From positions 1-6,036 of IMG/VR virus record IMGVR_UViG_3300045988_006460: a stretch of 6,036 nt of DNA; one strand, written 5' to 3'. The translations under genes and the position numbers were made by a program. The DNA comes from a virus. Each line of letters starts with the position of its first letter. Position 1 is the stretch's first letter. The notes beneath the pieces were generated by a model that did not search any database, was not told the DNA's origin, and saw nothing but the letters and a program-made list of their open reading frames with translations. Shown here piece by piece: positions 1-6,036 of this stretch.

Positions 1-119
1 ATTTTTTTTGTAACGTATCCTGCAACATATCTATAGGTTTCCGGTGTTGCTTGTGCTATCTGGATTTGACCCATTCCCCATAGGTTGCACATCCATTTGC
101 TTGTATAATATCCGTTGTG
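1..119. repeat. Terminal direct repeat, copy 1: overlap from a circular-genome assembly, identical to 5918..6036
   Basis: Base-by-base reading shows 1..119 (attttttttgtaacgtatcctgc...tataatatccgttgtg) is identical to 5918..6036. A minus-strand reading frame runs seamlessly across the junction and reconstitutes one 340-aa VP4. The unit genome is therefore 5,917 nt. Confidence 0.95.
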
Positions 120-662
120 CCTTATTTTATAGATTTGCTCTAGGTCTGTTGGTTGCCAACCGTATAAAATCATATGATAGTGTGGTCTCGCTGTTTGCTC
201 TCCGTACTCTCCAGCACAGAAATAGCGTAGTTGGCCCCTGTAAGCCTTTCTGAGACGTTTTAAGAACTTTTGCATATCTGGATATAGCAATGTTTGCACG
301 CTCTCTGGTGCCTTTTCTCCCGGCTTCCAGACGTATTGAACCTTACGCATGATTTCACCGGTTTTAACTATCATTCCTGGTATGTGGTCATCATCATAAG
401 TTAGCGTGATAAACCACACTTCTTCTTTTGGCCATGCTCTGGCCTCTAGCTCTATGCGTGTTGTCCAGTCCTCTCTTTGCCGTATTCTGCACCCGATGCA
501 TTTTCCGCATGGTATTAGCATTACTTTTGGGTCATACATCAAATCTTCATACTTCATCTGTTTCCCGGTTAACTCAGAAAAGCGGGCGAGAGACATCACC
601 CGCCCGCTTATTTCTCTGTTTTCCGGGTTGTACAGCCTTATAAGTGGCTTGTAACAACTCAT
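1..662 (-). CDS. VP4: Replication initiation protein VP4 (rolling-circle endonuclease, phiX174 A-protein superfamily), N-terminal part, running off the window edge. It continues at 5917 on the circle.
   Basis: This ORF is absent from the track because it has no stop codon at this end of the window. My translation from the ATG at 662..660 is MSCYKPLIRLYNPENREISGRVMSLARFSELTGKQMKYEDLMYDPKVMLIPCGKCIGCRIRQREDWTTRIELEARAWPKEEVWFITLTYDDDHIPGM...LRYFCAGEYGEQTARPHYHMILYGW...SKW. This then joins MCNLWGMGQ... of the 5557..6009 ORF. It carries the Cys cluster PCGKCIGCR, RCR motif 1 FITLTY (396..413) and motif 2 HYH (174..182). An AGGAG Shine-Dalgarno lies about 10 nt upstream. The ATG overlaps the VP2 stop as ATGA (659..662). 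Confidence 0.92.
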   Translation of the reverse strand, partial: MSCYKPLIRLYNPENREISGRVMSLARFSELTGKQMKYEDLMYDPKVMLIPCGKCIGCRIRQREDWTTRIELEARAWPKEEVWFITLTYDDDHIPGMIVKTGEIMRKVQYVWKPGEKAPESVQTLLYPDMQKFLKRLRKAYRGQLRYFCAGEYGEQTARPHYHMILYGWQPTDLEQIYKIRHNGYYTSKWMCNLWGMGQIQIAQATPETYRYVAGYVTKK

Positions 663-1513
663 CTTAAATAATCTCCTGGTTTTCTTTTTTCGCCATAATC
701 TCCTGTTTTGTCTTGCGGCTTTGTGAATTCTTGCTTTCTTCCCTGTCTTGGCGTTACTTTTTCAACTGCTTTTTCGGTTGCTTTGTCGGTTTCGTTTCCG
801 ATTTCCGTTAGCGCCTTTTGCATTCCGTAAGGTGTCAAGTGCGTTTGGCTTAGCATTTGTTGCCAGCTTTGCGCCGCGTTGTACCAATCTGATTTGCTCC
901 AGCTGCTGCTGCTGTATGCGTTTGGCACAAATCCTCCGCTTCTGCTTACACCTAGCGCACTACTACTTGCAAGGCCTATACTTGCACCGCTGATTGTTCC
1001 TGCGCTGCCTCCTGGCGTGCTCGCGCCTCCGTTTGCGAATGCTAGTATTGGATTTAGCCCTGCTTTTTTCATGTCCTCTACGGCTCTTTGATAGGCTGTG
1101 CTTGACATTCTTTCTTGCCATTCCCTATTTTTCATGGCTTCGGTGCTATTAAAATTCATTGCCGCCGTGTTCTCGATGTGGTTATAAATGCCTTGTGCAA
1201 TTGCGCTTAAAGTGTTATAGCCCATTTGTTTTAACATGGAACCGCTGTTAAATTGACTTTGCCTTTCTGCTTCGCCTGCTTGGTATTGGTAGGCACCTTC
1301 TAGCCACTTTTGCACTTGTTCGATGTTCGTTCCTGCTTGGCTTCCGCTTTCTGAATGTCCTCCGCCTTGGCTTACACTGCCGCCTTGGCTTTGTGAATTT
1401 CCTGTCTGTCCCCATCCACCGAATGCGCCGCCTATGTTTTTTACTGCTCCTGCAATGCTTCCTATTGCGTTGGCTCCTGCGCCAATCATTGACATAATGC
1501 TTAATGGATCCAT
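659..1513 (-). CDS. VP2: Minor capsid / DNA pilot protein VP2
   Basis: The ORF is 284 aa and lies directly downstream of VP1. Its N-terminus is Gly/Ala/Ser-rich and glycine-zipper-like (MIGAGANAIGSIAGAVKNIGGAFGG), followed by low-complexity GS/Q sequence. The motif REWQERMSSTAYQRAVEDMKKAGLNPILA matches the conserved TAYQR...D...AGLNP block I recognise from gokushovirus VP2 proteins. Confidence 0.85.
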   Translation of the reverse strand: MDPLSIMSMIGAGANAIGSIAGAVKNIGGAFGGWGQTGNSQSQGGSVSQGGGHSESGSQAGTNIEQVQKWLEGAYQYQAGEAERQSQFNSGSMLKQMGYNTLSAIAQGIYNHIENTAAMNFNSTEAMKNREWQERMSSTAYQRAVEDMKKAGLNPILAFANGGASTPGGSAGTISGASIGLASSSALGVSRSGGFVPNAYSSSSWSKSDWYNAAQSWQQMLSQTHLTPYGMQKALTEIGNETDKATEKAVEKVTPRQGRKQEFTKPQDKTGDYGEKRKPGDYLR

Positions 1514-1551: not shown

Positions 1552-3249
1552 TTACAGTTTATACAGGCCCGGCACGCTATACAATGGCATCCGTCGCGTG
1601 GTTTTGTTTGCCACTCGCACGGCTCCAAAGAATTGCGGTTCGCTCTGGACGATTAATGTTCTTGCAATCTCCGCTTTGCCTTCTGCCATCCATTCCTGGC
1701 TGAGTGTTGGAACAGTGCTGTATACATCAGCATAATGCCAGAAATCCAGTGTACCGGTGGCGTTGCTTCTCATTAGTCCAGATACCCGGTTTGGCTTCAT
1801 GCGGTAGTCTGCCCACGCTTCTTGATAGCCGAAAGTTTCCTCATCGGTCGTATCGCCTGTGAGCATGATTTCTTTCTTTTTTACCGGCTGTTCGCCTAAA
1901 TTTGCAAACTGTGGCACATAATAGTCAAGTCTGTCGCGTCTGCTCCAGAATCGTTCTAATCCCTGTTGGTAGCTTCGGTTGTGTCGTACACACGCAACAC
2001 CGATTACAAACCCGTGTTCTTCAAAACTCTTTGTGAATGAGCTTTCTCTGATAGGTGTTACGGACACTGCACCCGTTTCACCGATGGGAGTGTCGTTTTC
2101 CGTCTGCTGGCCGCTCGTCTGTACAATCTGGTTAACGTTGACTTGGTATCTGCCGCCTCCCAGATATTCCGGAATTTGTACTGTTTTGTCACTGATGGTT
2201 ACATCCCACAGTGCGCGTACCTGTTCGCGGTACCGGCTGCCGCCTCTAGCCAGCGTTTCATAGTACTGCTGCACTGCAATGGCCTGCCGCAACTCGTTTA
2301 TGGTCGTTGCTTCGATGCCGTGCAGATTTGTGTACAGGTTTCCACTTACGATGTAATTACCGCTTGGGCCTACTGTATATTCGCTGCCTTCGACGCCTGC
2401 TAATTCAACTGCTCCAGCTTTACCGTCCCAATAGCGATTGAACGCTCTGCCTGCTGCCGTTTTCGTTGGCGAGTTAAACCAAATTTGTTCGTTTTCTGCA
2501 TATGGTTCTACTTTACCGTTTACTAGATTGCCAATTATCACCGGTGCGTCACCGCTTAGGCTGATTGTTACCTCTGGCCCGCGCTGTGGATAAGGTAGAC
2601 AGCTGGTAAAATAGTCATGGTACTTGTTCACCGGTAGCAGATTTCCGCCCAACACTGCATTTTGCAGGTCTTTTTCTAGCGTTTCCGTTGCTTCTGCGTT
2701 GAATTTGTATGTCACATTTGCGTCATCGCTTTTCAAAACTGCCGCGTTGTCTATGTTTTCGTCTCTAAAAAATTCATTCCAGATTTTGACATATGCCCGG
2801 ATAGGCAATGCGTTGATGCTGAACGGTTTTTTGATTTTCGTAGGCACACCCATATAGTCCAGAATAGACCTCTCATCTGGTGCCGGTTTTGCTTCTGTGC
2901 CGTTGATATTGATTTGCGGCACTGTATATGCTTTTGTTGGCATCCACGGCGTTTCCTCAACTTCACCCATGAAGTTTTTGAAGCTGTCCCACAAGATTCG
3001 GTTCGGTGTGTAGAAGTAATAGAAGTCGATGAATGCATCGTCCATGACTGGATATTTCGGCGTGCTCATGCGGATGATTGCCGTTGTGTCTACCTGGAAA
3101 GTGTCTCCCGGAAGCACTTCATCCACGAAAAACGGAATCAGTTTTCCGGAATCAAATGTGGTTAAAATTGTCTGGTCGCGATTAAATCTCGTTCGGCTTG
3201 CGTGCATTTCCGGGATTTGAAGGAAATGCCTTTCATTATTTCTGTTCAT
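1552..3249 (-). CDS. VP1: Major capsid protein VP1 (Microviridae F-protein family)
   Basis: The ORF is 565 aa. Its N-terminus, MNRNNERHFLQIPEMHASRTRFNRDQTILTTFDSGKLIPFFVDEVLPGDTF, has the hallmark microvirus capsid signature (R..F...H...TTFD.G.L.P....EVLPGD.F). The size is typical of gokushovirus-like VP1. A GGAGGAAG SD lies 4 nt upstream of the ATG. The start overlaps the VP3 stop by 14 nt. Confidence 0.95.
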   Translation of the reverse strand: MNRNNERHFLQIPEMHASRTRFNRDQTILTTFDSGKLIPFFVDEVLPGDTFQVDTTAIIRMSTPKYPVMDDAFIDFYYFYTPNRILWDSFKNFMGEVEETPWMPTKAYTVPQININGTEAKPAPDERSILDYMGVPTKIKKPFSINALPIRAYVKIWNEFFRDENIDNAAVLKSDDANVTYKFNAEATETLEKDLQNAVLGGNLLPVNKYHDYFTSCLPYPQRGPEVTISLSGDAPVIIGNLVNGKVEPYAENEQIWFNSPTKTAAGRAFNRYWDGKAGAVELAGVEGSEYTVGPSGNYIVSGNLYTNLHGIEATTINELRQAIAVQQYYETLARGGSRYREQVRALWDVTISDKTVQIPEYLGGGRYQVNVNQIVQTSGQQTENDTPIGETGAVSVTPIRESSFTKSFEEHGFVIGVACVRHNRSYQQGLERFWSRRDRLDYYVPQFANLGEQPVKKKEIMLTGDTTDEETFGYQEAWADYRMKPNRVSGLMRSNATGTLDFWHYADVYSTVPTLSQEWMAEGKAEIARTLIVQSEPQFFGAVRVANKTTRRMPLYSVPGLYKL

Positions 3250-3640
3250 TTGCTTCCTCCGTCTTTTCCTGCGCGGTTTCCTGCGCTTTCTTCAGTTCTT
3301 CTAGCTTCATGGCGTTTACCTGTGCCGTTGCCATCATCTGGTGATACTCGTGCACGTTCTGCGGCCATCCGGTAATATCCTTGATAGGCGTTTCTTCCTT
3401 GGATAGCGCTCCCTGTGACAGACTTGCCATAAAGGCCGGGTCGAAACTCGCTTTTCTCACGATGTTTTTGATGTCGCATTCGTCTGCATAGCTTTCAATT
3501 TCGGCCTGCACGTCGATGCTTTCGGTTTCCTGTAGGTACTCTTGGCCGTCCTTATCTTTTGCCCAGACGTATTGTTTCCGTTCGTTTTTGCCCGGTTCGG
3601 AAAAGAGGGGCTTTCGCCCCTCCTCATATCGTTTATTCAT
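3236..3640 (-). CDS. VP3: Putative internal scaffolding protein VP3 (134 aa from the ATG at 3640)
   Basis: The gene sits immediately upstream of, and overlaps, VP1. It is small with an acidic, helical C-terminus (KLEELKKAQETAQEKTEEANEQK). The ECDIKNIVRK segment resembles the E.DIN.I..R block of gokushovirus VP3 as I remember it. I prefer the start at 3640 (MNKRYEEGRK...) because a GGGAGGG SD lies 8 nt upstream and this ATG overlaps the stop of the preceding gene by 8 nt. The ORF-track start at 3700 has no SD. Confidence 0.55.
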   Translation of the reverse strand: MNKRYEEGRKPLFSEPGKNERKQYVWAKDKDGQEYLQETESIDVQAEIESYADECDIKNIVRKASFDPAFMASLSQGALSKEETPIKDITGWPQNVHEYHQMMATAQVNAMKLEELKKAQETAQEKTEEANEQK

Positions 3641-3872
3641 GTGGCTTGCCCTCCCACACTTTTTCTTTGTCGTTCTGGAAGGTTCCCAGTTCATCCTCAA
3701 AGTCGGCCAATTTAAAGCCGGTGTAGTCCTGCGGACTCTGGCCGATAAATGTTTTTTCGTCCTTGGCCATCACATTGCACATTCGCGCAAAGGTTGCGTT
3801 GTTTTTGCTCTCGCCTACCCATGCATAGCATTTTGCTACGTCGTCCCAGATGCCGTAATATGCGTGAATCAT
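3633..3872 (-). CDS. Hypothetical protein, 79 aa, possibly the small conserved non-structural protein seen in many gokushoviruses
   Basis: The start is ATG with an AAAGGA SD 8 nt upstream, and the gene is packed tightly between its neighbours. The pattern YYGIWDD...ATFARMCN...QDYTGFKLADFEDELG resembles a Y.I.D...A.R.F...DY.L..[IL]G.[FY]D..G family I recall from gokushovirus genomes. This was not verified. Confidence 0.55.
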   Translation of the reverse strand: MIHAYYGIWDDVAKCYAWVGESKNNATFARMCNVMAKDEKTFIGQSPQDYTGFKLADFEDELGTFQNDKEKVWEGKPHE

Positions 3873-3888: not shown

Positions 3889-3990
3889 TTACAGCCGGAT
3901 GCCCCCGCGCATGGGCTTTTGGCTCAGGTTGATACTCTTGGTTTTTCGCGCGGTGACGTTGAACATGCGCTTATCCTTTCGCATATTCAT
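3889..3990 (-). CDS. Small, highly basic peptide of 33 aa: candidate DNA-condensing/packaging protein, analogous to phiX174 J or gokushovirus ORF8
   Basis: The ORF is below the track cutoff. My translation is MNMRKDKRMFNVTARKTKSINLSQKPMRGGIRL, with 10 K/R and 1 D. It fills the gap between the 75-aa gene (stop codon at 3995..3997) and the 79-aa gene (start at 3872), and its stop codon abuts the next gene's SD. Its own SD is weak: AAGAAG is adjacent to the first ATG and 6 nt from the ATG at 3984. Confidence 0.45.
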   Translation of the reverse strand: MNMRKDKRMFNVTARKTKSINLSQKPMRGGIRL

Positions 3991-3994
3991 CTTC

Positions 3995-4222
3995 TTACGA
4001 TATGCCATTGTAAAATCCCCTTCTGATAAGTTCAAGCTCGATTGCATTTGTAAAGCTCTTTAAGTGCCAGATTTCGTCTAGCATCTTCTTTGCGGTTTCT
4101 ATGTCCGCTATCTTGCGCAAGAGCTTATATTGCGCGTCTATCTCTTTGTATTTTTTTTCGAGAATGCTTCTCAATTCATCTTCGGTCTGGTCTCTGACGT
4201 TCCAGCTTTTGTGTAAGGGCAT
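3995..4222 (-). CDS. Hypothetical protein, 75 aa, predicted helical
   Basis: The start is ATG with a strong GAAGGAG SD 7 nt upstream. The gene is on the same strand as its neighbours and tightly packed. I recognise no motif in it. Confidence 0.6.
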   Translation of the reverse strand: MPLHKSWNVRDQTEDELRSILEKKYKEIDAQYKLLRKIADIETAKKMLDEIWHLKSFTNAIELELIRRGFYNGIS

Positions 4223-4227
4223 GTTTG

Positions 4228-4344
4228 TTACTCCTTCTCGTTCGCCGCGTCCTTAAGCGCGTGATAGATTTCATCGAGCTTTTCAAGAATGTCCATCATG
4301 AGCTTGACGGCCTGTTTGACGTCCTTCACACTAATCAGTGTCAT
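4228..4344 (-). CDS. Hypothetical small protein, 38 aa, an amphipathic helix
   Basis: The ORF is below the track cutoff. My translation is MTLISVKDVKQAVKLMMDILEKLDEIYHALKDAANEKE. An AAGGGAG SD lies 7 nt upstream. The ATG comes 2 nt after the peptidase stop codon. Its last codons (GAG AAG GAG TAA) form the SD of the next gene. Confidence 0.5.
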   Translation of the reverse strand: MTLISVKDVKQAVKLMMDILEKLDEIYHALKDAANEKE

Positions 4345-4346
4345 GG

Positions 4347-4730
4347 TTATACTCCCTTTCTATATTTGTTTTCGCGCACGTCAATGTGTACGAAATTAGT
4401 ATATCGGATGACCCCGCCTTTGTCAAGTATGTTATCTGCATATTTTGCGACTTCTTTTGAACTGTGTCCTTTCACTACGATATCCGCCGCCATTCCTTTG
4501 CAGTGATATGAGTTCCCTGCGCCGTTTACTTTTGCGTTGTGGCTTGGCGTTCTGTAGCCGCTGTTAATCGTACAAGGTGCATTGAAATGATTTCTAATCT
4601 TCTCCAGTGTTTCCAGTAGCTCTGTGCATAGGAGTAGTTCAAAACTTCCGTCTTTACACGCAAATTCTTTCGCCTCAAAGTGTTCACTCACCTTTCCGAA
4701 ATCTCTGTTAATGAAGTTAATGTGTTTCAT
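4347..4730 (-). CDS. Zinc D-Ala-D-Ala carboxypeptidase-like peptidoglycan hydrolase (peptidase M15 / LAS fold, M15A-like)
   Basis: The ORF is 127 aa. It carries SGYR (aa 57-60), an H-x6-D motif (H76CKGMAAD83) and a C-terminal FVHID (H115, D117). This is the Zn-ligand arrangement of LAS/M15 enzymes. An AAGGAG SD lies 8 nt upstream. There is no N-terminal signal peptide or TM segment. Confidence 0.85.
   Translation of the reverse strand: MKHINFINRDFGKVSEHFEAKEFACKDGSFELLLCTELLETLEKIRNHFNAPCTINSGYRTPSHNAKVNGAGNSYHCKGMAADIVVKGHSSKEVAKYADNILDKGGVIRYTNFVHIDVRENKYRKGV
4398..4426 (-). promoter_or_regulatory. Candidate internal promoter inside the peptidase gene
   Basis: The minus strand reads TTGACA (4421..4426), an exact 17-nt spacer, then TATACT (4398..4403). 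It would start transcripts about 45 nt upstream of the 38-aa ORF. Confidence 0.4.
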
Positions 4731-4917
4731 TGTTTTGCTCCTTTTCGGTGAAGTACAGTGCCACTTTTTCTACTTTGTACAGTGAGTACAGACCCGGGTG
4801 CCTGTTTGCGTAATCTTTCGCTTTCTGCTTTGCGCATTTCGGTTCCTCGTTCATTTTCAATACGGTGGTCATGGTGTCGTCATCGTTCCAGCTTCTCAGC
4901 TCGTATCTGTGCTTCAT
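4717..4917 (-). CDS. Hypothetical protein, 66 aa from the ATG at 4917, first gene after the promoter
   Basis: The ORF-track start at 4926 is a GTG sitting directly against the SD. The ATG at 4917 lies 8 nt downstream of AAGGAAGG, so I prefer it (MKHRYELRSWNDDD...). The gene overlaps the peptidase start by 14 nt. Confidence 0.55.
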   Translation of the reverse strand: MKHRYELRSWNDDDTMTTVLKMNEEPKCAKQKAKDYANRHPGLYSLYKVEKVALYFTEKEQNNETH

Positions 4918-4944
4918 TTTTAGCACCTTCCTTTCTGTGATTAT

Positions 4945-4973
4945 ATTCTATCATATTTTTAGGTTTTTGTCAA
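4945..4973 (-). promoter_or_regulatory. Near-consensus sigma70/sigmaA-type promoter with an extended -10 and an upstream A/T tract
   Basis: The minus strand reads AAAATTTTTTCAAAAAAGAC-TTGACA-(17 nt)-TGA-TAGAAT. The -35 TTGACA is at 4968..4973, the TG at 4952..4953 and the -10 TAGAAT at 4945..4950. A second TATAAT at 4940..4945 overlaps it. The first gene's SD and ATG follow about 20-30 nt downstream. Confidence 0.75.
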
Positions 4974-5013
4974 GTCTTTTTTGAAAAAATTTTAGAAAAC
5001 TTTTCCTAGGATA

Positions 5014-5091
5014 GGAGCGCCATTAAACTCCCCGCTGCAGCGGCTCCTTTTGATAAGACCGGCAAGGCCGGTCAGACTGTTGGTGCGCTCC
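5014..5091. other. 78-nt closed multi-stem element, with a three-way-junction-like potential fold
   Basis: The outer 7-bp stem pairs GGAGCGC (5014..5020) with GCGCTCC (5085..5091). It encloses the perfect 12-nt palindrome CCGCTGCAGCGG (5032..5043) and the hairpin GACCGGC-AAG-GCCGGTC (5057..5073). It lies about 40 nt upstream of the promoter -35 element. Confidence 0.45.
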
Positions 5092-5135
5092 GTTAGACTT
5101 TGCCTTCACCGCTCACTCTGTTTTATTGGCCGTTC

Positions 5136-5270
5136 TTTTCAACTTTTCCACATTGTTAAACTTTAGCACAACAGAGCATTTCAACAATTCAACAAGTTTT
5201 CAACATTTCTTTTAACAGTACTTTCTTTTATAAAGAAACGTTATTGTGTTATTTTTTAATGGTTTTCAAC
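5136..5270. repeat. AT-rich block with five copies of TTCAAC(A), which reads GTTGAA on the gene strand
   Basis: TTCAAC occurs at 5138, 5180, 5188, 5199 and 5265. The middle three copies are spaced 8 and 11 nt apart. The 9-mer CAACAAGTT occurs twice (5190..5198 and 5299..5307). TTTTCCACA at 5144..5152 fits the relaxed DnaA-box consensus TTWTNCACA. Confidence 0.5.
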
Positions 5271-5312
5271 TTTTTAACTACCTCTACTACTACGACTACA
5301 ACAAGTTAATAA

Positions 5313-5364
5313 ATATATGCGCGTGCGTGCGTGCGCGTCTACGTGCGCGTATGCGCGCGCATAC
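5313..5364. repeat. Alternating purine-pyrimidine (CG/TG/TA) tract, Z-DNA-prone, which is also an imperfect palindrome
   Basis: Strict R/Y alternation holds across 5313..5338 and again across 5340..5364, with a single phase slip at c5339. The arm 5316..5338 can pair with 5341..5363 at 23 positions, giving 18 Watson-Crick pairs and 5 G-T pairs. The tract includes the perfect palindrome TATGCGCGCGCATA (5350..5363). Confidence 0.8.
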
Positions 5365-5386
5365 CTTTGAGCGCTTTAGCGCGAAC

Positions 5387-5449
5387 CGGCACCGGATAGG
5401 TGCCGTGCCAATAGGGGGCACGGGGGACGCGAGCGGAACGCGGCCCCCG
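5387..5449. other. Three abutting GC-rich hairpins
   Basis: H1 is CGGCACC-GGATA-GGTGCCG (5387..5405). H2 is GTGCC-AATAGGG-GGCAC (5405..5421). H3 is CGGGGG-A-CGCG-AGCGGAA-CGCG-G-CCCCCG (5421..5449), with 10 bp and one A/G mismatch. On the plus strand H3 is followed by GATTTCTTGATAATTTC. Confidence 0.6.
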
Positions 5450-5490
5450 GATTTCTTGATAATTTCAATCACTGAATAGGCTGATACATG

Positions 5491-5507
5491 GAGCCTTTAA
5501 ACGGCTC
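5491..5507. other. Small hairpin GAGCC-TTTAAAC-GGCTC
   Basis: It has a 5-bp stem and a 7-nt loop, and it abuts the 14-bp hairpin at 5507..5542. Confidence 0.4.
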
Positions 5508-5542
5508 TGGCCCAGTACCTTACTTGATAGGTACTGGGCCAG
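5507..5542 (-). terminator. Perfect 14-bp hairpin 14 nt downstream of the VP4 stop: putative transcription terminator or ssDNA structural signal
   Basis: CTGGCCCAGTACCT (5507..5520) pairs perfectly with AGGTACTGGGCCAG (5529..5542) around the 8-nt loop TACTTGAT. No clear U-tract follows on either strand, so its function as an intrinsic terminator is uncertain. Confidence 0.45.
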
Positions 5543-5556
5543 GTGACACCAAAATC

Positions 5557-6036
5557 TTATAAACCGCCTTTTTGGAGTTTTACAGACTTTTTGACAACTC
5601 TTTCTTTTGTTTTTAAGTTCTCTGCGAAATCTGCATTTTCATACTTGAGCCGGTTTTGTTCGATTACTGCTTTCTGTCGGTTCCTCTTGATTCTCCATAA
5701 CCGTTCTGGATTTTCTGCTTCCATCATTTTTTCATAATATCGTGGAATTTGTGCTTGTTTTCCGTTGGTGCACTGGATATAGCCTTTTTTCCATATTTCT
5801 TCCTTGTGTTCTTGATAGTAGGAATCGCCTAGGCCCGGCTTCAGACTCATGCATGCAAATGGTTTCTGCTGGCCTAACTCGTAATACACGTTTGCTTTCT
5901 GGCCGTCAATTTCGTACATTTTTTTTGTAACGTATCCTGCAACATATCTATAGGTTTCCGGTGTTGCTTGTGCTATCTGGATTTGACCCATTCCCCATAG
6001 GTTGCACATCCATTTGCTTGTATAATATCCGTTGTG
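5557..6036 (-). CDS. VP4: Replication initiation protein VP4, C-terminal part. The full protein is 340 aa across the circular junction.
   Basis: The frame is continuous with 1..662 through the 119-nt overlap. It contains the two-tyrosine RCR motif 3, YVAGYVTKK (5920..5946, also present at 3..29), which closely resembles the active-site YVAKYVNK of the phiX174 A protein as I recall it. The stop is TAA at 5557..5559. The Met at 6009 in the ORF track is internal. Confidence 0.92.
   Translation of the reverse strand, partial: HNGYYTSKWMCNLWGMGQIQIAQATPETYRYVAGYVTKKMYEIDGQKANVYYELGQQKPFACMSLKPGLGDSYYQEHKEEIWKKGYIQCTNGKQAQIPRYYEKMMEAENPERLWRIKRNRQKAVIEQNRLKYENADFAENLKTKERVVKKSVKLQKGGL
5918..6036. 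repeat. Terminal direct repeat, copy 2 (identical to 1..119)
   Basis: Same as copy 1. This is a redundancy from linearising a circle, not a biological repeat. Confidence 0.95.

Follow-up and report, generated by a model that had tools for sequence, protein, structure and literature searches.

A conserved M15 peptidase in gut gokushoviruses that lack a membrane partner: a probable endolysin domain acquired from tailed phages of Clostridia

The window analyzed here, a stretch of 6,036 nucleotides, carries on its minus strand (4347..4730) a gene for a 127-aa protein of the Peptidase_M15_3 family (MEROPS M15A, LAS-type) that consists of the catalytic domain only, as identified by Pfam and PHROG profiles, alignment to the structure 1LBU, and the invariance of its motifs. 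We consider it probable that this protein is a catalytic-domain-only endolysin for the release of progeny, taken over from a tailed phage's endolysin module and kept by its clade as a core gene. A very abundant clade of gut phages thus retains an active-looking endolysin domain without a membrane partner, whereas the tailed-phage homologues of that domain adjoin holins. To our knowledge, no lysis mechanism has been demonstrated for any gokushovirus. The 127-aa enzyme, together with four small ORFs and the pilot protein VP2, would make a clean experimental system for the way in which a phage without a holin releases its progeny, and the question of how release is achieved concerns the clade, not this window alone.

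The first 119 nucleotides of the window are repeated exactly at its end (1-119 = 5918-6036), which closes the sequence into a circular genome of 5,917 nucleotides with a G+C content of 45.8%. This is the complete genome of a small ssDNA phage from the gut, a gokushovirus (Gokushovirinae, Microviridae). Every credible gene in it is encoded by the minus strand, VP1, VP2, VP3, VP4, and VP5 among them, and the circle falls within the 4.5-6 kb that is a hallmark of the Gokushovirinae. The microvirus context recognized in the preliminary description was borne out by Pfam and PHROG profiles, which matched all five of these proteins: the replication protein VP4 (662..1 and 5917..5557, across the junction of the circle), the pilot protein VP2 (659-1513; PHROG 8742, E 7.5e-125), the capsid protein VP1 (1552-3249; Pfam Phage_F, E 1.3e-137), the scaffold protein VP3 (3236-3700; Chlamy_scaf), and VP5 (3633-3872; Phage_ORF5). 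A further gene on this strand encodes a basic protein with a pI of 11.4 that was found in all 102 related microvirus genomes. It is listed as a 52-aa ORF (3889-4047), but the match to PHROG 10695 (E 1.6e-11) spans residues 14-52, and the likely gene is a 39-aa version that starts at M14 (3889..4008); the product is probably a VP8/J-like DNA-binding protein. The closest GenBank records are classified as Gokushovirinae from human, pig, and monkey feces, with the best match, KT264792.1, showing 86% nucleotide identity across 68% of the genome.

Membership of the peptidase in the M15_3 family is secure. An HMM search against the Pfam M15 families, proposed as a check in the preliminary description, matched PF08291 (Peptidase_M15_3) from end to end (profile positions 2-108 of 108) with an E of 2.7e-23 and a score of 82.6 bits (cut-off 23.2). 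The match to Peptidase_M15_2 (PF05951) was weaker (E 3e-08), and that to PHROG 894, annotated as "endolysin", was strong (E 3e-38). By direct count, the motifs are S57-G58-Y59-R60, H76-x6-D83, and H115-x-D117, exactly the positions within the 127-aa ORF at which an SGYR, H-x6-D, and H-x-D zinc-site arrangement had been described before any database search. The H-x6-D motif, the C-terminal His motif, and the SxxR substrate loop are therefore all present. Across 101 microvirus orthologues that are 42-96% identical, residues S57, G58, R60, H76, D83, H115, and D117 are invariant in 99-100, and the dN/dS of the gene is about 0.10, with dS near saturation. The active site is intact and under selection, and its sequence would lead one to expect an enzyme that degrades peptidoglycan. 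An orthologue of MepK was considered and rejected: the NCBIfam match has an E of 3.6e-12, but its 46.5 bits fall far under the equivalog cut-off of 185.

The only solved structure matched by sequence is 1LBU from Streptomyces albus G (E 5e-4 with the single sequence, 2.5e-5 with a profile). In an alignment of about 44 residues, running from SGxR to H-x6-D, H76 and D83 of the peptidase fall on H154 and D161 (chain positions) of 1LBU. An AF2 model of the peptidase has a mean pLDDT of 77.8 and a low-confidence loop at residues 60-77 that includes H76. Comparison of this model with BFVD and the PDB places it in the Hedgehog/DD-peptidase fold. The comparison with LAS-fold structures, also suggested at the outset, gave matches in both collections. 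In BFVD, the model reached a TM of up to 0.82 and an E as low as 4e-19 against predicted structures of viral proteins labeled "Peptidase M15A C-terminal", several of them from marine microviruses. In the PDB, the best Foldseek matches were Hedgehog N-domains, which have the LAS fold, with a probability of 0.99 but weak scores (E about 1e-2, TM 0.46). No M15 endolysin structure scored in the PDB search with the AF2 model, probably because the active-site loop at 60-77 is poorly modeled.

That this gene exists, which family it belongs to, how it is distributed among gut gokushoviruses, and that it was acquired horizontally have been on record since 2012, as has the endolysin hypothesis. Roux et al. 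2012 (PMC3394797) reported M15_3 peptidases from Gokushovirinae of the human gut, noted their affinity to Faecalibacterium/Clostridiales, and proposed both horizontal acquisition and an endolysin role. The putative-endolysin interpretation was repeated by Kirchberger et al. 2022 (PMC9239249), Zhang et al. 2024, and others, and later surveys treat the M15 peptidase as a typical lysis-associated accessory gene of microviruses. The expectation that the gene is probably not unprecedented was thus correct, and it is annotated in GenBank as well. The accompanying view that such ORFs occur sporadically in microviruses has to be given up. With tblastn, the peptidase was found in 398 phage records, many of them Microviridae annotated as "peptidase M15" or "similar to peptidase"; 319 IMG/VR stretches match it, mostly contigs of 5.5-6 kb; and a protein database yielded 790 matches at E <1e-5, the best 120 of which are 72-93% identical. 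In KT264792.1, the gene lies at 4230-4610, unannotated in the record, and its product has 93% amino-acid identity to that of the window. Among 47 near-complete relatives that were picked via VP4 and not via the peptidase, 46 have the gene at the same position, and the single exception is a contig broken at the peptidase locus. The peptidase is a core gene of a large clade of gut gokushoviruses. What we add to the earlier work is a measure, across the clade, of how consistently a membrane partner is missing, the link of the tailed-phage homologues to holins, and the finding that the flanking mini-genes are a conserved part of the backbone.

The peptidases of this clade fall into two allele groups, 60-96% and about 50% identical to the window protein, on otherwise similar backbones. 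The contigs L060-L083 and L165-L218, compared with L004-L049, have alleles about 50% identical in the same slot, with a backbone VP4 that is 84-95% identical. These sequences suggest that the peptidase gene has been replaced through recombination between the allele groups, and recombination of peptidase genes, as reported by Kirchberger et al. 2022 (PMC9239249), fits this pattern. Two more distant contigs, L031 and L059, have VP1 and VP4 only about 40% identical to those of the window and a different gene order, and they keep the peptidase (75% and 51% identical, respectively) and the small downstream gene ORF38 (76% and 71%). From this comparison, the small genes appear to move as a block between distant microvirus lineages. 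Another reading is that the peptidase has a non-lytic role, for example in wall remodeling or superinfection effects, or that it is a dispensable passenger acquired horizontally; the swapping of alleles on the same backbone and the existence of a related lineage that lives without the peptidase both point that way. However, near-universal retention in the clade, an invariant active site, and strong purifying selection, in a genome of less than 6 kb where space is costly, speak against either, and we regard both as very improbable.

The closest non-microvirus homologues of the peptidase are domains of endolysins in tailed phages of Clostridia, with 50-58% identity. Proteins of 200-414 aa, these endolysins join the peptidase domain to NAGPA, Phage_lysozyme, or PG_binding_1, and their genes adjoin Phage_holin_4_1 (E 2.6e-37) or Phage_holin_5_2 (E 1.5e-19). 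On one contig (L070), a stand-alone version of 131 aa lies downstream of a holin recognized by Pfam, with one small hydrophobic ORF in between. The endolysin of Faecalibacterium phage FP_oengus is 48% identical to the peptidase. The nearest cellular homologues (up to 57% identity) are almost all from Clostridia, namely Lachnospiraceae, Oscillospiraceae (Faecalibacterium, Dysosmobacter), and Lacrimispora. CRISPR spacers likewise predict Clostridiales hosts for gut gokushoviruses (Shah et al. 2023, PMC10159846), and together these two lines of evidence lend indirect support to the earlier guess of a thick-walled host.

A thick wall also raises the question of entry. A peptidase carried in or on the virion could open the wall locally for a tailless capsid and its pilot protein, and might contribute to lysis as well. 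Muralytic enzymes do occur in the virions of tailless tectiviruses such as PRD1, in which P15 also acts in lysis. The probable monoderm, Clostridia-type host and the lack of any encoded export device would suit such a role, and a peptidoglycan hydrolase of the microvirus Ebor, Gp7, has been found in purified virions (PMC11980548). That signal, however, was present in trace amounts only. The window peptidase is free-standing, unfused to VP2 or VP1; related genomes without it exist; and 5.9 kb of ssDNA would presumably leave little space for it inside a T=1 capsid. No close homologue outside the microviruses is a tail or ejection protein; all are endolysins linked to holins. The suggestion in the preliminary description that the enzyme may act at entry found no positive support here, and we consider entry an unlikely function.

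An endolysin would ordinarily be accompanied by a means of crossing the membrane. We searched for one with a Kyte-Doolittle scan (19-residue window, threshold 1.6; hereafter KD19) of all ORFs of at least 25 aa in the three gene-strand frames of the circularized genome. No gene-strand ORF in the window contains a segment of transmembrane (TM) grade by this measure, and the same holds for 94 of 102 related microvirus genomes. In the eight exceptions, the hydrophobic stretches are the VP2 N-terminus of L031, just above the threshold, non-ATG alternative-frame ORFs in VP1, and ORFs over a GC-rich intergenic repeat, and none of these is conserved. In phiX174, the same scan detected the lysis protein E (2.79) and gave 1.40 for the N-terminus of the pilot protein H, a segment which we take to be a transmembrane helix. 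As a second positive control, holins were recognized by Pfam beside the tailed-phage homologues. The peptidase itself is a soluble enzyme: its maximum KD19 is 0.63, its N-terminus, MKHINFINRDFGKVSEHFEAKEF, is polar, and neither a signal peptide nor a SAR segment was found on it. Longer versions of the protein in databases were considered as carriers of a signal peptide and rejected, being extensions by gene callers from upstream starts that are basic and non-hydrophobic.

Hence, the window contains neither a canonical holin-endolysin cassette nor, lacking any gene-strand TM ORF, a single-gene lysis protein of the phiX174 E type. It had been foreseen that a conventional holin or TM protein might have been missed in an overlapping frame; none is conserved in any gene-strand frame of the window and its 102 relatives, and a hidden holin or overprinted TM gene was rejected accordingly. 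TM genes on the opposite strand were rejected as well. The plus strand holds 15 hydrophobic ORFs, none of which is open in most relatives; the best kept is a 38-aa ORF opposite the conserved VP1 that is open in 55 of 102. These ORFs are a compositional effect that is expected opposite purine-rich coding sequence. The lack of a holin, signal peptide, or TM partner that had first been noticed in a single genome is thus confirmed, and the absence of a holin is real across the whole clade. On this strand, just one segment comes near TM grade, a Gly/Ala-rich hydrophobic stretch at the N-terminus of VP2 on the gene side (1442..1504, minus strand), LSIMSMIGAGANAIGSIAGAV, with a KD19 of 1.49.

Small ORFs flank the peptidase on both sides. 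Upstream lies ORF66 (4717..4917, minus strand), which probably starts at the ATG at 4917, with AAGGAAGG ahead of it. The 3' end of ORF66 and the start of the peptidase share 14 nt, and the Shine-Dalgarno sequence of the peptidase (AAGGAG, 4739..4744, minus strand), 8 nt 5' of the ATG, lies within that 3' end. Downstream, the ATG of ORF38 (4228..4344, minus strand) follows the peptidase stop by 2 nt, and its GGGAG Shine-Dalgarno sequence lies within the 3' end of the peptidase gene. The translational coupling to both neighbors that had been inferred earlier is in keeping with this arrangement. The description of these neighbors as orphans is not: ORF38 is kept in 99 of 102 relatives and ORF75, a small helical protein (3995..4222, minus strand), in 98 of 102, both under purifying selection (dN/dS 0.13 and 0.16, respectively), and ORF66, with no match in Pfam, PHROG, or NCBIfam, has a patchy set of homologues, found in KT264799 and 17 of the 102 relatives (dN/dS about 0.21). 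ORF75 has matches in Microviridae only, in gut gokushoviruses, and is mostly unannotated. The order peptidase-ORF38-ORF75-basic protein-VP5-VP3-VP1-VP2-VP4 is conserved.

ORF38 encodes an acidic mini-protein of 38 aa that would form an amphipathic helix (hydrophobic moment 0.64, pI 5.2). It occurs in gut gokushoviruses only, and hardly any GenBank record annotates it. Given its pI, a cationic membrane-active peptide was rejected. It was also rejected as a partner specific to the peptidase, since it occurs, 64-72% identical, in three complete genomes of 5.2-5.3 kb that have no peptidase (MG945157, KT264799, and MG945423). VP1 of these genomes is 45-50% identical to that of the window; ORF38 is thus better conserved across gokushovirus lineages than most genes. 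Its presence in the peptidase-free lineage indicates that ORF38 is a backbone gene and that the peptidase is an accessory gain. The same three genomes also lack any gene-strand ORF of TM grade. Because a lineage with neither a peptidase nor a TM protein must release its progeny too, the backbone must hold some further release mechanism, and the peptidase may be an accessory factor and not the primary lysis effector.

The 630-nt region between VP4 and ORF66 (4927..5556) is an unusually long non-coding stretch. A consensus scan found in it a promoter-like site of the sigma-70/SigA type (4973..4945, minus strand), TTGACA-17-TAGAAT with a TG extension (TGaTAGAAT). The statement in the preliminary description that the peptidase is the second gene after the strongest promoter stands as to gene order, the peptidase being the second ORF; the 11 of 12 matches of the promoter, a match to the consensus only, are tied with those of one other site, from which it differs in being the sole site with TG. 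A promoter-like site with 11 of 12 matches (TTGACA-17-TATACT) also lies inside the peptidase gene (4398-4426, minus strand), facing ORF38 and the downstream genes, and may be due to chance. Also in the non-coding region are five repeats that contain TTTCAAC (5136-5279), an imperfect palindrome of alternating purines and pyrimidines that is rich in GC (5311-5368), and, shortly after the stop codon of VP4, a perfect hairpin of 14 bp (5507-5542). The region may harbor an origin, a terminator, or regulatory sites. A search for Rfam families in it returned only sub-threshold miRNA models on the GC-rich palindrome, which we regard as spurious. Strong Shine-Dalgarno sites and a TTGACA-17-TGnTAGAAT promoter are compatible with a Clostridia-type host. 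The operon looks constitutively transcribed, with no obvious timing device, and this counts against the endolysin reading.

Constitutive expression would fit a different mode of action, in which the peptidase would remain cytoplasmic and break down the peptide stems of UDP-MurNAc-pentapeptide or of lipid I/II, so that wall synthesis is starved, growing cells lyse, and no holin is needed. Such an enzyme would be a catalytic analogue of the "protein antibiotics" phiX174 E and Qbeta A2. This would account for the clade-wide lack of a membrane partner, and 1LBU, its nearest relative of solved structure, is a muramoyl-pentapeptide D-Ala-D-Ala carboxypeptidase; within the M15 family, VanX and VanXY act on cytoplasmic precursors. 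On the other hand, the same domain serves tailed phages as a holin-dependent endolysin that acts on the mature wall, and other stem-peptide endolysins build up harmlessly in the cytoplasm until the holin fires. Attack on precursors as the function of the peptidase is, in our judgment, improbable.

Under the endolysin reading that we favor, an ancestor of this gut gokushovirus clade would have picked up an M15_3 domain from a Clostridia tailed phage's endolysin module; only the catalytic part would have been retained, now one of the clade's core genes. As infection ends, the zinc-dependent peptidase would cut peptide stems or cross-links of the host wall, and the progeny would thereby escape from a monoderm, Clostridia-type cell. 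As there is no canonical holin, signal sequence, or SAR domain, access to the wall would have to be gained via something else. One candidate route is a membrane lesion made by the pilot protein VP2, the sole protein with a TM-like segment. A second would be a lysis factor in the gokushovirus backbone, common to the peptidase-free relatives. A third may be non-classical export of the peptidase, by analogy with some endolysins of phages that infect Gram-positive bacteria (fOg44 Lys44, the pneumococcal SV1 lysin, and Ms6 LysA with Gp1). Whether the endolysin of the gut clade works without any holin, either by attacking cytoplasmic precursors or with VP2 (through its glycine-zipper N-terminus), ORF38, or ORF75 as a holin substitute, is a broader proposition, which we hold to be doubtful. 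If true, holin-free lysis by an endolysin, in either form, would be a strategy not yet described for any phage.

Among known systems, the peptidase can be compared with bacterial wall enzymes, tailed-phage endolysins, and the lysis genes of other microviruses. The zinc D-Ala-D-Ala carboxypeptidase 1LBU (M15A) shares SGxR and H-x6-D with it, but is a secreted bacterial enzyme with an additional N-terminal domain, and its second motif is presumably H-x-H, in place of H-x-D. E. coli MepK, an L,D-endopeptidase of the Peptidase_M15_2/DUF882 family that is exported to the periplasm, has a related catalytic core without being orthologous. The M15_3 endolysins of Clostridia tailed phages (FP_oengus and those on contigs L053, L069, and L070) have a catalytic domain that is 48-58% identical, with the same motifs and Pfam family; however, they are mostly multidomain and holin-adjacent, while the microvirus protein is a bare 127-aa domain without a holin. 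The genome of phiX174, like that of the window, is a Microviridae genome without a holin, but its lysis gene, overprinted in gene D, makes a small TM protein, E, which blocks MraY. The window gene, by contrast, encodes an enzyme, was gained through horizontal transfer, and shows no such overprinting. The microvirus Ebor likewise has a small free-standing wall enzyme, Gp7, a peptidoglycan hydrolase of 146 aa that degrades peptidoglycan in zymograms (PMC11980548). Ebor differs in belonging to the "Tainavirinae", in infecting a Gram-negative host, Rhodobacter capsulatus, and in encoding a predicted membrane protein of 45 aa, Gp1; the HHpred match of Gp7 is 6SSC, which is absent from the PDB sequence matches of the window peptidase. 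The M15_3 peptidases of human-gut Gokushovirinae (KT264792.1; KX513877.1, annotated "peptidase M15"; MG945xxx, annotated "similar to peptidase") come from the same habitat and virus group and represent the same gene, and the window is an isolate-level variant of them with no essential difference.
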